A stretch of 15,908 nucleotides of DNA from Armatimonadota bacterium. Lineage in GTDB: Bacteria; Armatimonadota; Armatimonadia; Armatimonadales; Armatimonadaceae. The position numbers were made by a program. The first letter of the stretch is position 1. The number at the start of each line of letters is the position of its first letter. This document shows, piece by piece, positions 1-6,000 of this stretch. The stretch lies in the NCBI GenBank assembly GCA_043754515.1, contig JAYUUO010000064.1, positions 1 through 15,908 on the forward strand. The letters are read 5' to 3'.

Positions 1-3000
1 GCCGTCCGTCGCGCCCGCGAGTATTTCTTGCTTTAGAAACACGACGGTTATGTAATCGCCCTGCTGTACCGCCCGATCCCCCGCGCTCCTATAGTAGCAG
101 TGCGATAGTCTAGTAGCAGTGCGATAGTCCGCGACCCGCGTGGGACGCGCTCATTTCTCAACTCCCCCTCCGGCGCGAAGAGGGGGCGGTGGCGGTTCCG
201 CAGACCTACCGCCGCCGTCGAATCTCGCCCAATAGCCGCTCGATGTCCGCTTTCGCGGTGGTCAGCGCGGCCTCCAGATCGTCGAGTTCATCCTCCGACA
301 CCGCCGACACGCGCAGTTCGCCCAGCACCTGCGGTAGCCGCTCCGCAATCCCGACCATGGCGCGGCTCGCCGAGAACGGCGCGGGGCCGTCCTTGCCCAG
401 TGGCCCGCCGTCGTACGCGCCCTCGTGGTAATCCATCTCGCGCGGCTCGCGGCTCCCACCGCCGCCCCCGGAGCCGCGCCCGCCCCCGCCGATCCCGTCG
501 CCATCGCCGCCCTTGCCGAACCGCTTGCGCAACCCGTCCGCGCCTTCGCCTAAGATCGCCTCGAAGTCGTCAGGGCTTTCGCGCAGGGCGCGTGCATACA
601 AGGACGTCTCGTCGGACGACAGTTTGTCGCCCTTGATCTTCTCCACGAGGGCCGCCTGCGCGTCGGGGTTGTCGTTAAGTTGGCGCAGGAACCGCCCGTG
701 CTTCTCAGTCAGGTTGCCCGCCGAGGGACGGTTCGGGGACGAAATGATCTGCTCGCCGATCTCCTCCGGCAGGTCCATCAGGTCGAGCAGATAGCCCACG
801 GTGCGCTCGGAAAGCGCGAGCCTCCCCGCGACTTCCTTGTTGGTCGCACCAATGGTCTCCTTCAACGCCTTGATCGCGCGCGCCTTGTCGAGCGGCGCGA
901 GCTCCTCGCGTTGCAGGTTCTCGATCAGTTGCTCGGTCGCTTTTTCGGAGATGTCGGTCGGGGCTTCGGGGCGCACGATACACGGGATCTCGAACTGCCC
1001 CGCGATCTGCGAGGCGCGCCAGCGGCGTTCCCCGGTGATGATGCGGTAGCCGTCCACGCCTTTGAGCGGCGCGACCGTGATCGGATTCAGAACGCCGTGC
1101 TGGCGGATCGAGTCGGCGAGTCCTTGCAGGGCGACGTCGTCGAGTGCCCTTCGCGGCTGGTCGGGGTCTTCGACGATGCGGGAAACTTCTATAACTTGCA
1201 AATCCACGGCGTGGGTTCTCCAGAAAGGGTCGGTGCCGCGCGGTTGGTGATGGTGAACTGTTTGCCCCGCGCGTTTGCCGTATTATAACCCTTGCGGGTA
1301 TGGCCGGTCAAGGGTTGCGAACGGCACTGTTGCCCGAACCCTCCACACGCCGTACTGCGAACGGCATTGTTGCCCGAACCCTCCACACGCCGTACAATGC
1401 GCGAGCAACCACGGCGACCTATACCGATCCCTCCCCATGAACATGTTCCCCCTCCTCCCCCCGCTCGCCGCGCTCGAAAGGGGGCTAATCGTCTCCTGTC
1501 AGGCGCAACCGGGCGAACCGCTCCATTCGTCCTACATCATGGCGCGGATGGCGGTCGCGGCGCACGAGGGCGGGGCGGTTGGGATCCGCGCCGAATCGCC
1601 GGATGACATACGCGCCATCCGCGCGGCCGTCCCCGACCTGCCGATCATCGGGCTATGGAAGGTGACGCTCCCCGGCTACGAGCACACGGTATATATCACC
1701 CCGCGCCTGTCCGACGCGCGGGCCGTCGCGGACGCGGGCGCGGACATTATCGCGTTGGACGCGACGCTTCGTCCCCACCCCGAGGGCACGGCGGCGGAAC
1801 TGATCCGTGCCGTGAAAGCCGCGACCGGGAGGCTAGTCATGGCGGATATTGATAACGAAGCGGCGGCGTTGGCGGCGATTGACGCGGGCGCGGATTGCGT
1901 TTCGACCACGCTCTCCGGCTACACAGACGATTCGCCGCGCTCGGACACGCCCGACTTCGTGCTGATCGAGCGGCTGGCGTCGCTAAACCTGCCGGTGCCC
2001 GTTATCGCGGAAGGGCGCATTCACACGCCCGAAATGGCGCGGCGCGTGCTCGATGCGGGCGCGTTCGCGGTCGTGGTCGGCGGCGCGATCACGCGCCCGC
2101 AACAGATCACCGCGCGGTTCGCGAGAGCGGTGCGCGGCGAATGAACGTGCTCGGCGTGGACATCGGCGGCACCAAAATCGCGGCGGGCGTGGTGGAAAGC
2201 AATTCCGGCATCGTTTTACACAGCGAACGCGTCCCGACCGACGCGCAAGAGGGCGGCGCGGCGGTGCTAGCGCGGGCGATCGCGCTGGCGCGGCGCGTGG
2301 TCGCCGCCGCGAACGCTTCCATCGGCCTCATCGGGGTCGGCGCGGGTGGGCAGATTGACTTCCGCACCGGGGTGGTGCTGTCCGCGACGGATATCCTGCC
2401 CGGCTGGGCGGGCACTCGCCTCGCGGAGTCGTTCGGGGACGCGTTCGGCGTACCCGCCTTCGCCGACAATGACGTCAACGCGTTCGCGCTCGGCGAGCAT
2501 CGGTTCGGGGCGGGACGAGGGACGGGCGACGCGGTGTTTCTGGCCCTCGGGACCGGAGTCGGGGGCGCGATCATCGCGGACGGCAGACTGCACCGCGGCA
2601 GGCGCGGCACCGGGGGCGAACTCGGGCACATGCTGATCGGAGACACGGAAGGCGAGTCGTACTACACGCTGGAGGACACCACGAAGGGCGACCGCCTCGC
2701 CGACCTGTACCGCTTTCACACGCGATCCCCATCCCGCTTCGGCGCGAGCGGCAAATCGTTGCTGTCGGAGCCGATCACGGGGCTTGTCGTCGGTCACGCG
2801 GCACTGCGGCAACCCGGAAGCGACGCGGGCGAAGCGGTTCGCGTTCTGGGCGCGGACCTGGGCGTTGGCCTTGCTTCGCTCGCCAATATTCTAGACACAG
2901 AGCGGTTCGTGATCGGCGGCGGGCTTGCGACACTCGGCGACCTGCTATTAGAGCCGGCGCGGGCGGCGTTCGCGCGTCACGTGTTGCCCCTCTACGGCGA

Positions 3001-6000
3001 CACGCGGATTGTCGGCGCGGGGCTGGGCGCAAAATCTTCGGTGATCGGCGCGGCGTGCGTTGCGCTTGTGGGTATAGAAAGAGATGTCGTTGCCTGAACC
3101 ATTGCGCGCTACCAGCGTCGCCCTGTTGCCACTGGACGAGCGCCCCGTAAACACGCGCTATCCGCTCATGCTGGGCGCGATCGCCGGGGTGTCCGTCAAG
3201 TTACCCCCGTCGGAGATTCGCGGCGAGCACAAGCGCGGCGCGAGCACGGCGGTGGTCGCCGAGTGGCTTCAGGACACGGGCGCGGATGCCGTGATCGCGT
3301 CCGCCGAGTACCTGCTCTACGGCAACCTCATTCAATCGCGGATCTCCACGGAGTCCGTCGCCGACGTCATGCCGCGCCTGTCCGTCCTCGAGGATGTGGC
3401 GCGCGGGGGGAAAACAGTGTACGCGTTCGGTCTGATCACCCGCGTCTCGAACGCCGACGTGGATGTCGAGGAGCCGGGCTATTGGAACCAGTACGGGACG
3501 CGCTTCTACCAGCTCTCGCAACTCCTGCACAAGCAGGAAGTCTATGGTGAGCTGGACGCGGGCGATTCCGAGCAGCTGACGTGGCTCCGCATGGAACTGC
3601 CCGCCGAACTGGTCGCCGACTTCCTGACGCGCCGCCTTCGCAACCACACGGTTAACCTCGCCCTGCTGGATCTCGTGGCGCGGGGGCGGCTGGATCTGCT
3701 CCTGCTGACATCGGACGACACCTCGGTTTATGGACTCCCGACCCGCGAAAAGTCGTGGCTGGAGGGCTGGATGAGTTTGCTCGGTGACGCGGCGAAGGGG
3801 CGGGTGCTGATGCACCCCGGCGCGGACGAGGTAGGCTCCGCGCTTCTGTGCCGCCTGATCTGCGCGGGGCGGGGCGCGGCTCCCGCCATTTATCCGCTGT
3901 ACGCGGTCCCCGGCGGCGAGGAGATCGTCGCGCCGTACGAGGACCGCGCGGCGCGGATCACGGTCGAGGCACAGATCCGCGCGTGCGGCGGGTCCGTGGC
4001 GACAGCGATGGAGGGGGCGGACATCGTGCTGGGTGTTCTGCCGCCGTCACCGCGCCGCACCGAATGGCGCGCGAGTTTCGCTGCGTCCGAACGCGCCGAG
4101 CGCGAGGATCTGTACCGCGATTTCATCGGCGTACTCGGTGAGCGACAACGCGCCGGGGTGCCGGTCGCGGTCGGGGACATCGCTTATCCGAACGGCTCCG
4201 ACCCGCTCTTTATCGAGCTACTTTTTGCGGCGGGTTGCCCACTCGTGCCCGGACGCCTCGCGGCGTACGGTGCCTGGAACACGGCAGGCAACACGCTCGG
4301 CACCACGGTTGCGCAGGCGATCCTTTCTACTTTCACTGAAGGGAACACGGAGCGCGAGGCGGCGCAGGCGACGTTTCTGGCGCACCGCTTCCTGGAGGAC
4401 TGGGGTTACCAGGCGGTCACGCGCCACGTCGCCCGCGACGTGCTTCAGAAGCGGAGCGGGCGGCGCGACCCGTCCCCCGACAGCGACGACGAGCAGACGC
4501 TCGCCCGCCAGACCATCGAGAGCGGCCTCGTCGAGAAGTTGCGCGAACTGCAAGCCGTCGGCGTCGGCGTCGGCTTGACGCTGGCCCAGGGTTCGGTCCG
4601 CCTGCCGTGGAAGCGGACGTTCGAAGTGGACTTCGACCTGGTGCCCGGCTTGTGAATGGCGAGGTGCTCATAGCGCGTAGCCTCACCGGTCCGGTAAAAT
4701 AGCGACGTGGAGAAGTCGTCATTATCTTTCGAGATCGAAACGCCAACCGGCTGGGAGCTAGCTCGGTTGCCGCGCGGGGCACACGACCGTTTGCAACAAC
4801 TATTGGATCGGCAGGACTCGGGACAGCGGCTCGCGCCGGGCGAAGCGGACGAGGCGCAGGGTCTCTGGCTGACCTCGCCGAGTGGCTGTCGCTCGTGCGT
4901 CTGCGCTCCGAGCGGGTCGTCCGCGAGACCCCCGCGAAGTAGTGGCTGATATTCCCGCGTCACTACGGCGATTCGTTGTGGAACGCGCCGTTTCCCGTTG
5001 CGAGTATTGCAGGGACTCAGACCGGACAAGAAGCGACATTTCACCTCGATCATATGACGCCTGACCCAACTCACAAGCCCGTCGTGGTTAGAACCGTGTC
5101 ACGCACCCAGTCAAACCGAGCCGGAGTCAGTTCACCGATCTTGTTCGGGAGGCGCACCTTGCCGCGCACCTGCACCTGATAGCCGAAGCACTACCGACTC
5201 TTGCGGCAGACTCGCTTCTCCGGCGTCTAGTTGGAGCGTCGCGGGCATGAGGAGGCACCTCATATTCGCAGTTGATGGGACCACGACCACGGTTGTTAAA
5301 ACGTCGTTTAGCGCGTCGTCTTGCATCACGATCGCGGGGCGTTGTCCCGCTTGTTCAGGCCCCGAGGGCGCACCGAAATCAGTCGTCCAGACCGCGCCCT
5401 GCTTCACGCGCTGTCTTCGGCGGCAAGTAGCGCGGCGCGGTGGGTCGGGTCAGAGTCGGCGAGCGCGGCGTCTTCACCGGCGAAGGCGGCGGCATTCGCG
5501 GATCGCCTCCAGGTCCCGGGTCGGCTCTGGGCGTGGGCGCGATTTGGCCTCCTCTCGCGCCAGATAGACGCGTATGGCGTCGGCGATCAGCGCGTCCGTG
5601 CCGATATGTCGGGCGGTAGCGAGGCGTTCAAGGCGCGTCAGGAGTTCCGGGGCGAGCGTAGCGGTCATGGTGTGATCACACCAGACCTGGCGAGGGGTGC
5701 GTCACCGGCCGCGCGACGCTGAGGGCGATCAGGTTACTGGCGGGTTGCTCCGGCGGCGAACAGTCGCGGCGCATTCACGACGGATGATTTGCCCGCGTGC
5801 AAAGCATGACGCGGGAACCCGCCCGCCCGCCGCGTTCGTAATCCCATTTAGACGTGCCCGAAGCCGCCCTCCCGCCTTGACAGGCACGGGGCGGCGTGGT
5901 ACGATTTCCCTTGATGAACAGGGAGCGGGAACGCACCCTGTTTTTTGTTGCCGATTTCGTAGCGGAATCGGCACGAGACGAACGAAAGTATCCAGCAACC

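Follow-up and report, generated by a model that had tools for sequence, protein, structure and literature searches.

The nan operons (NanA, the ROK kinase NanK, NanE, NagA and NagB) are among the closest described systems to the locus analysed here, with which they have in common that NanE and a ROK kinase are encoded in one operon. In much of the Terrabacteria, SLH proteins use pyruvylated N-acetylmannosamine (ManNAc) as their anchor. The CsaB/TagA/SLH system makes and binds the pyruvylated secondary cell-wall polymer (SCWP) (PMC6801904; 10.1101/2021.05.31.446380), and no SCWP-degrading or ketal-removing enzyme is described for it in the available portions of these two sources. Enzymes that degrade pyruvylated glycans are little known according to the accessible part of a report on PvGal-ase, which belongs to family GH1, comes from Bacillus sp. 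HMA207 and frees 4,6-pyruvylated galactose (PMC6090015). During xanthan utilisation, as described in the accessible text of two sources, a PL8 lyase releases 4,6-pyruvylated mannose, and the loci hold an ABC importer, an FAD oxidoreductase, a kinase and ManA (PMC12772297; 10.64898/2026.04.20.719765).

Results

Organization of the operon

The window analysed, a 15,908-nucleotide stretch of an Armatimonadota genome, was found to contain three genes on the + strand: nanE (1437..2144), encoding a predicted N-acetylmannosamine-6-phosphate 2-epimerase of 235 aa (PF04131, 190 bits, E 3e-56; NF002231, 278 bits against a cut-off of 189), a gene for a ROK-family sugar kinase of 318 aa (2141..3097, start ATG at 2141; PF00480, E 1.6e-40) and a gene for a DUF4127 protein of 523 aa without a signal peptide (3084..4655; PF13552, E 6.6e-126). 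The ROK start codon overlaps the nanE stop (ATGA) and the DUF4127 start overlaps the end of the ROK gene by 14 nt; coordinates and profile matches thus agree with the same-strand nanE-ROK-DUF4127 cluster of the initial annotation. PF13552 was the sole Pfam family in the DUF4127 protein (421 bits against a cut-off of 27, model positions 1-488 of 489), and its gene was present in one copy in the genome. The ROK kinase scored under every NCBIfam equivalog cut-off, including those for NanK, and a motif check did not find the CxCGxxGCxE zinc motif. It showed 42-47% identity to the ROK halves of ROK-DUF4127 fusion proteins, and it is probably a ManNAc kinase. Located 5' of nanE is a 40-bp tandem duplication in two copies (1315..1394, not assigned to a strand; 38/40 bases match at period 40), which is overlapped by a weak, putative sigma-70-like site (1370-1398; 9/12 in a promoter scan).

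Epimerase and kinase genes near DUF4127 homologues

Among 182 sampled DUF4127 homologues, 129 loci encoded cytoplasmic and 53 apparently exported forms; neighbours were counted within 8 kb, and kinship between genomes was uncontrolled in all neighbour and co-occurrence counts. A ManNAc epimerase candidate was present at 74 of the 129 cytoplasmic loci, never two at the same locus, and was either NanE (45 loci), a NanE-like barrel (20 loci; 95% against NanE, E 2.4e-8) or AGE (nine loci). No epimerase was found nearby at 55 cytoplasmic loci, and only 2 of the 53 exported loci had one. ABC importers, RpiR/GntR/LacI regulators and sometimes NagA or NagB were also encoded in related loci. As reported before, three single proteins of 838-862 aa carrying both ROK and DUF4127 were detected among the 120 relatives listed; ROK is N-terminal in all three, and their pairwise identity of 66-80% over their length indicates one fusion event. 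Fusions in the reverse order were also found. These reverse-order fusions and the candidate epimerases that often substitute for NanE lend stronger support than before to the part of the initial annotation that assigned DUF4127 to an unnamed amino-sugar step, that is, a ManNAc feed into NanE. The link to NanE had been called general, which proved too wide. Within the phylum, DUF4127 was present in 68/151 genomes, NanE in 49/151 and both in 27, a co-occurrence that was not significant (p 0.12); 41 of the 68 DUF4127-positive genomes had no NanE match, exported forms are rarely near an epimerase, and DUF4127 and NanE lay within 8 kb of each other in 7/13 genomes of the same order compared to 0/14 from other orders.

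The proposed sialic-acid-type metabolism was not borne out. NanA did not exceed its cut-off in the genome studied, which is 92.7% complete (best TIGR00683 score 94 bits against a cut-off of 382), making a sialic acid substrate unlikely, and no sialidase or NanA/DHDPS family was found among the 68 representatives of recurrent neighbours scanned. A step of Neu5Ac catabolism, e.g., a replacement of NanA, would match the presence of NanE and ROK, which are usual nan genes, and the 45 loci with NanE. However, it is the least probable function considered, since DUF4127 homologues have no conserved Lys and since the exported and SLH-fused forms and the links to CsaB and xanthan presented below would be left unexplained.

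Predicted fold and conserved residues

The whole AlphaFold2 model of the DUF4127 protein (pLDDT 96.9, pTM 0.95) had, as annotated initially, no close solved counterpart: the best match reached Z 7.7, and 0 of 48,161 chains scored Z>=8. The kinase-like matches (ribokinase/PdxK kinases, Z 6.5-7.1, rmsd 3.9-4.5) again fell within the background range stated for the search tool. Sequence searches of the PDB gave best E-values of 0.029 and 0.37, no match to known glycoside hydrolase families was found in Pfam, NCBIfam or PDB sequences, and the whole-model and N-domain structure searches returned no glycosidase fold match, Foldseek giving low-TM rows only. ESM Atlas returned DUF4127 clusters only, and nothing was left when these were skipped.

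An N-terminal alpha/beta domain (residues 9-263; 3108..3872, + strand), folded alone with a pLDDT of 97.6, contains D18, R20, R86, R120, D211, D212 and D248, each placed directly after a beta-strand in the model. Its top match was the SGNH-type esterase 9kqz (Z 9.7, rmsd 3.4, 162 aligned), with a lead of only about 1 Z over periplasmic sugar-binding proteins (Z 8.1-8.6). The C-terminal alpha/beta domain and tail (3873..4655, + strand) hold the conserved D365, W398, T400, N403, W509 and R511; this region, covered by the whole-model search, gave TIR/flavodoxin-like matches at Z<=7.7. An internal duplication of the two domains was unsupported (hhalign probability <2%).

About 17 polar residues were near-invariant across the cytoplasmic and exported forms, and D18, R20, R86, R120, D212 and D248 were kept at 98-100% in both. 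Four to five Arg and pairs of Asp are conserved in the family; no His or Cys reaches 75% conservation, and no Ser or Lys is conserved. The sequence motifs listed in the initial annotation were located at the positions given, but not every one is invariant, as position 19 varies between E, D, S, N and T (E19 in 55% of cytoplasmic homologues). The two alpha/beta domains and the matches to sugar-binding proteins would suit a protein without catalytic activity that binds ManNAc compounds or acts as a regulator for them. We consider this very unlikely because the loci already contain a binding protein and a regulator, so many polar residues are near-invariant, and the fusion partners are enzymes and SLH.

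Exported homologues and their association with SLH and CsaB

An SLH/SCWP gene was found within 8 kb at 11/53 exported compared to 2/129 cytoplasmic loci, several of the SLH neighbours stemming from related genomes. One locus (L204) encodes a fusion of signal peptide, DUF4127 and SLH, an SLH gene follows immediately 3' of DUF4127 at others (L188 and L195 by Pfam; L211 and L212 by cluster), and at L187/L233 DUF4127 is divergent from a DUF5693-TagA-LCP-CsaB-TagO cluster. CsaB was present in 40/40 DUF4127 genomes compared to 166/211 others and, within the Bacilli, in 25/29 compared to 87/192; the four CsaB-negative exceptions were cytoplasmic DUF4127 genes in importer operons. The majority of CsaB genomes contained no DUF4127. 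A long paralogous DUF4127 group in large Bacilli genomes had unrelated neighbours. CsaB was found in 147/151 genomes of the phylum studied here, so near-universal that co-occurrence is uninformative there; the genome itself contains DUF5693-CsaB and one TagA.

Association with PF12831 flavoproteins and xanthan loci

A PF12831 flavoprotein was encoded beside DUF4127 at 42 of the 129 cytoplasmic loci (type A at 30, type B at 12, never both), and four DUF4127-PF12831 fusions were detected; 87 cytoplasmic loci had no PF12831 nearby. The adjacent type A proteins showed 52-57% identity to the flavoprotein of three out of six xanthan-type loci, and type A was present in 5/5 xanthan-locus genomes tested compared to 18/101 Microbacterium. 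DUF4127 was absent from the xanthan loci and from all five of these genomes, which therefore handle pyruvylated mannose without it. At one locus (L257), a secreted DUF4127 takes the place of the PL8, GH2 or GH5 of other PF12831 cassettes. The exported PF12831 protein of the genome studied showed no SLH fusion among 120 of 489 relatives listed. A GH1 protein beside one xanthan-locus flavoprotein was rejected as a PvGal-ase: it is of the ordinary beta-glucosidase type, and no PvGal-ase was named among 60 of 156 matches listed.

Exported DUF4127 forms were present in the control genomes of Thermus thermophilus and Deinococcus radiodurans, in which PF12831 was not matched at E<=1e-20; the family thus works without the flavoprotein. 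This and the lack of a conserved Ser or His argue against hydrolysis or phosphorolysis of some other wall-polymer bond (a GlcNAc-1-phosphate linkage unit, an ester or a PF12831-made intermediate). Such a function would agree with the resemblance of the N-domain to SGNH esterases, with the many Arg that could bind phosphate, with the PF12831 fusions and with a phosphodiester glycosidase or esterase adjoining a few loci, and is regarded as unlikely.

Within the phylum, type A was found in 16/40 DUF4127-positive and 26/40 DUF4127-negative genomes (p 0.04, uncorrected), and four type-A loci from the latter showed no sugar cassette. This tendency towards mutual exclusion is the pattern expected if both proteins did the same job, and it supports the view that DUF4127 is a ketal hydrolase. 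It would then hydrolyse the 4,6-O-(1-carboxyethylidene) group, releasing pyruvate and exposing O6 for the ROK kinase, and exported forms would strip the SLH-binding epitope. Since the ketal blocks O6, its removal directly before the kinase would fit ROK fusions in both orders, conserved Arg and Asp pairs with no His, Ser or Cys nucleophile would suit the acid hydrolysis of an acetal that bears a carboxylate, the operon studied contains no PF12831 gene, and the known glycosidases adjoining 38/129 cytoplasmic loci could do the cutting. However, the exclusion fades once type B, a broad, multi-copy group, is counted (23 of 24 type-A-less DUF4127-positive genomes match it), pyruvylated mannose is used by xanthan-locus genomes without DUF4127, and sharing of 42 loci and four fusions would be unexpected if both enzymes carried out a single step. 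A ketal hydrolase is thus rather doubtful, although it is the most serious competitor of the function proposed below.

Discussion

From the gene order, fusions, co-occurrence, conservation and fold, we infer a substrate, a bond and a role for PF12831. We tentatively propose, as the leading candidate function, that DUF4127 is a putative new family of carbohydrate hydrolases that cuts ManNAc, usually 4,6-pyruvylated, out of SCWP, the ManNAc glycosidic bond being a likelier target than the ketal. This is favoured because xanthan-locus genomes do without DUF4127, because PF12831 type A or B fills a single slot beside it, and because DUF4127 replaces PL8, GH2 or GH5 at L257, while the glycosidases of DUF4127 loci (GH20, GH84, GH3 and GH38) are not known to cleave beta-ManNAc. 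Counting against the proposal are the model, which resembles no glycosidase, the cytoplasmic loci devoid of an epimerase or of PF12831, the lower frequency of type A in DUF4127-positive genomes of the phylum, the many CsaB genomes lacking DUF4127 and the unrelated neighbours of the Bacilli paralogues.

SCWP, the polymer anchoring SLH proteins in CsaB-bearing bacteria, would be the source of the substrate. Cytoplasmic DUF4127, including the protein studied here, would split imported or recycled fragments such as Pyr-ManNAc-beta-1,4-GlcNAc, the PF12831 flavoprotein may strip the ketal where present, the ROK kinase would yield ManNAc-6-P, and NanE would convert this to GlcNAc-6-P; exported DUF4127 would make the same cut in the wall. 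Acid/base catalysis might be performed by the conserved aspartates D18, D211/D212 and D248, and the conserved arginines may hold the pyruvate carboxylate. That PF12831 removes the ketal is a guess, and a xanthan preprint, in its accessible text, names a different gene, XutH, as an untested candidate for this step (10.64898/2026.04.20.719765). With less confidence than for the hydrolase itself, we suggest that DUF4127 and PF12831 may jointly make up the missing route by which pyruvylated SCWP is taken apart, with Pyr-ManNAc freed by DUF4127, the ketal removed by PF12831, and SLH-anchored S-layers and outer-membrane tethers released from the wall by exported DUF4127 proteins.

In a literature search outside subscription journals, nothing was found on DUF4127 or PF13552 or on an N-acetylmannosaminidase, only unrelated work on PF12831, and no depyruvylating ketal enzyme in titles or abstract openings. 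Two families and a defined substrate are thus named as candidates for the recycling of pyruvylated sugars. If true, glycosidase or ketal hydrolase alike would be an activity absent from the literature searched, and the glycosidase would be the first beta-N-acetylmannosaminidase and would have a new fold. Ketal removal by PF12831 would also explain the use of pyruvylated mannose by xanthan degraders. Either activity would be useful for the analysis or removal of wall polymers and xanthan, and might explain how S-layers and outer membranes are loosened.

Compared to SGNH hydrolases (PVA esterase 9kqz; carbohydrate esterases 7tog and 5b5s), the N-domain has a similar topology (Z 8.8-9.7 over about 160 residues, 3.4-3.7 A) at 9-13% identity, but DUF4127 has an additional helical hairpin and another alpha/beta domain and lacks both the catalytic Ser after strand 1, where position 19 varies, and the Asp-x-x-His. 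PvGal-ase resembles the proposed enzyme in being a carboxylate-based glycosidase that releases an intact pyruvylated hexose; it differs in its GH1 barrel and catalytic Glu pair, DUF4127 having another fold and no GH1 match. Compared to nan operons, no NanA or sialidase was found here, three epimerase candidates are interchangeable, and DUF4127 and PF12831 would instead be placed upstream of the kinase step. In xanthan loci, the PF12831 protein belongs to the same subfamily and is accompanied by a LacI-binding protein-ABC cassette and, downstream, by a kinase and an isomerase/epimerase, but their sugar is mannose, it is released by a lyase, and DUF4127 is absent. The CsaB/TagA/SLH proteins are biosynthetic and binding, unlike DUF4127, which is proposed to act in degradation of the polymer that they make and bind.

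Operon and Domain Fusions

As described in the initial annotation, nanE (1437-2144), a ROK kinase gene (2141-3097, its ATG start overlapping the nanE stop) and the 523-aa DUF4127 gene (3084-4655) were found clustered on the forward strand, the last two overlapping by 14 nt. A motif check showed the cysteine zinc motif to be absent from this ROK. An orphan ParB/Noc-like gene (206-1207, reverse strand) is divergent from nanE, with no parA in the window and with a sigma-70-like site (11/12 match, promoter scan) at 1311-1282. Between this gene and nanE, a 40-bp unit is present in two head-to-tail copies (1315-1394; 38/40 identical), which may reflect either a duplicated operator or an artefact of assembly. 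Judging by the translations, we take 6139-8248 to be a secE-nusG-rplK-rplA cluster and 13019-15792 to be a type I restriction methyltransferase region; neither is related to the operon.

The three ROK-DUF4127 fusions reported among the 120 relatives listed were recovered; these were 66-80% identical to each other and thus represent one event. Three further proteins, each from a separate 50% cluster, showed the reverse order DUF4127-ROK, and therefore at least two independent fusions have occurred. Four long relatives contained DUF4127 fused to a PF12831 flavoprotein. In another family of the phylum, NanE was fused to a ROK-like domain (L142:5377-7461 and L143:5751-7217).

Epimerases Adjoining DUF4127

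Within the phylum, DUF4127 was matched in 68/151 genomes, nearly always as a single copy and distributed family by family, and NanE in 49/151; 27 genomes contained both (p 0.12). The two genes lay at most 8 kb apart in 7/13 genomes of the order and in 0/14 elsewhere in the phylum, so that the NanE link, earlier regarded as general, is not. A wider rule holds: cytoplasmic DUF4127 is often accompanied by an epimerase candidate. Removal of 8 partial frames and 2 duplicates from 192 matching frames gave 182 pooled loci, which are not a random draw and include kin that are not independent; these were divided into 129 cytoplasmic and 53 exported by a rule based on hydrophobicity, six assignments being corrected by hand, and neighbors were labelled by BLAST to Pfam-scanned representatives. 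An epimerase candidate was present within 8 kb at 74/129 cytoplasmic loci (NanE 45, a Pfam-less TIM barrel 20, AGE 9), never two together. Kinases (48), ABC permeases (58), PF12831 (42) and labelled glycosidase families (38) were also found near cytoplasmic DUF4127.

The TIM barrel aligned to NanE with 95% probability (E 2.4e-8), and its family (L122:9204-9884 and relatives, alignment A2), a remote relative of NanE, has an invariant Lys-x-His after strand 2. It adjoins DUF4127 at 20 loci without NanE and is a candidate second ManNAc-6-P epimerase. Upstream of DUF4127, a Pfam-less protein of 410-450 aa (L120:4862-6100, L121:9791-11044, L089:5883-7244) is encoded between the NanE-like barrel and an apgM-like mutase gene.

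The proposal of a sialic-acid-type metabolism was not supported: no NanA match over the cut-off was detected in the source genome, and no NanA/DHDPS or sialidase family among the 68 neighbor representatives scanned. A sialic acid step is thus highly improbable for DUF4127. Since epimerases adjoin DUF4127 while NanA and sialidase were not found, the product is most likely ManNAc derived from something other than sialic acid.

Association with the Wall Polymer

The source genome contains a DUF5693-CsaB and one TagA. As CsaB is near-universal in the phylum (147/151 genomes), its co-occurrence with DUF4127 is uninformative within this group. Among 251 genomes sampled around a Desulfotomaculum record, CsaB was present in 40/40 DUF4127 genomes compared to 166/211 others, and in 221 Bacilli in 25/29 compared to 87/192. 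The four CsaB-less Bacilli carry a cytoplasmic DUF4127 in an importer operon with ROK, NanE or PF12831, as expected of scavengers. Most CsaB genomes lack DUF4127, which is therefore not required for the polymer.

Of 51 genomes in the phylum to which a Meiothermus record belongs, 46 contained DUF4127, most often as a short form whose N-terminus is signal-like. One exported DUF4127 (L204) carries C-terminal SLH domains, and several exported genes have an SLH gene directly downstream. Four have an SLH S-layer gene nearby, and a DUF5693-TagA-LCP-CsaB-TagO cluster is divergent from one. SLH or wall-polymer neighbors were found at 11/53 exported compared to 2/129 cytoplasmic loci, several of these being kin. 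In one family of the source phylum (L134, L135), nanE and a BadF-type kinase adjoin DUF5693-csaB, with DUF4127 elsewhere in the genome. Other contigs of the source genome contain GH20-, GH3-, GHL10-, GH38- and NagA-like genes and both PF12831 types (A and B); the operon would here recycle the cell's own wall sugar. Action on a wall-polymer bond other than the glycosidic bond or the pyruvate ketal is improbable, though less so than a sialic acid step.

A subgroup of about 600 aa from large Bacilli genomes (L202, L227, L230-L232) has neither signal peptide nor sugar neighbors, and at three of its loci the second gene downstream resembles a phage tail sheath gene; the proposed reading does not account for this subgroup.

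Fold and Conserved Residues

The AlphaFold2 model of the window DUF4127 (pLDDT 96.9) agreed with the earlier statement that no close structural counterpart exists, the whole model giving 0 matches at Z>=8. Folded alone, the N-domain matched SGNH-type esterases at Z 9.7 (3.4 A over 162 residues) and, at Z 8.1-8.6, sugar-binding proteins, a matter of common topology, not kinship. A mere binding role is very unlikely. No conserved His, Cys or nucleophile Ser was found in the cytoplasmic and exported alignments. D18, R20, R86, R120, D211/D212, D248, D365, W398, T400, N403, W509 and R511 are 92-100% kept in both classes (Glu allowed at D211), which therefore probably share the same chemistry. Most of these residues directly follow beta-strands in the model, and together they may form a single pocket. 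Such a set of Asp, Arg and Trp is suited to hydrolyzing an acetal carried by a carboxylated sugar, glycoside and ketal fitting equally.

The PF12831 Flavoprotein and Candidate Bonds for Cleavage

In the accessible parts of two xanthan studies (PMC12772297; 10.64898/2026.04.20.719765), an ABC importer and a FAD-dependent oxidoreductase are described beside the lyase freeing 4,6-pyruvylated mannose, and one of them also lists a kinase and ManA; these parts contain no tested ketal-removing enzyme, the preprint's candidate being XutH. A PL8 search matched 43 of 301 Microbacterium genomes, and the ten top places fetched included six xanthan-type loci (PL8, GH38, GH3, ABC; GH9 confirmed in four). 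Three of the six contain a PF12831 gene (L240:13521-15170, L243:10333-12030, L249:18026-19900), 52-57% identical to the DUF4127-adjacent one of a Microbispora locus; when the first was compared with all type-A proteins adjoining DUF4127, identities were 37-58%, and with the DUF4127-PF12831 fusion P0125 the value was 42%. This subfamily was present in 5/5 xanthan-locus genomes (one being the source of the query) compared to 18/101 in Microbacterium, and DUF4127 in 0/5. From the locus layout we infer that these are the flavoproteins of the xanthan studies, and they are candidates for the enzyme removing the ketal from mannose. The presence of one flavoprotein type in both pyruvylated-mannose and DUF4127-NanE loci suggests that pyruvylated ManNAc is a substrate of the latter.

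Divergent from a LacI-PF12831-ABC cassette in Microbacterium (L254, L255, L256, L258, L259, L262, L272), a protein of 770-870 aa with little or no Pfam cover recurs, possibly a new glycan-cleaving family. On contig C270 of the source genome, a type-A-like gene with a signal-like N-terminus (L274:536-2290; at least 489 relatives) lies 5 kb from the single tagA.

We tentatively favor a glycosidase acting on the wall-polymer sugar. Xanthan-locus genomes handle pyruvylated mannose without DUF4127, which counts for the glycosidic bond. PF12831 fills one slot in the 129 cytoplasmic loci (type A 30, type B 12, never both), and its sharing of loci and fusion with DUF4127 suggest two different steps. 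The position occupied by PL8, GH2 or GH5 in other flavoprotein cassettes is taken by a secreted DUF4127 in one locus from Microbacterium, which also counts for a glycosidase; release of intact pyruvylated galactose by a GH1, described in the accessible part of PMC6090015, is a precedent. That DUF4127 itself hydrolyzes the ketal is rather unlikely. In favor of this reading, ketal removal must directly precede the kinase, the window operon has no flavoprotein gene, and type A is present in 16/40 DUF4127-positive compared to 26/40 DUF4127-negative genomes of the phylum; however, this exclusion weakens with type B, present in 23/24 type-A-less positive and 9/14 type-A-less negative genomes, although type B is a broad, multi-copy group.

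In the literature searched, outside of which most subscription journals lie, no paper was found on DUF4127, PF13552 or an N-acetylmannosaminidase. A long-open gap can now be tested with one defined substrate, but all functional steps are drawn from context. The operon type is already known, unlike the DUF4127 enzyme family, the fold of its members and the pathway proposed here.
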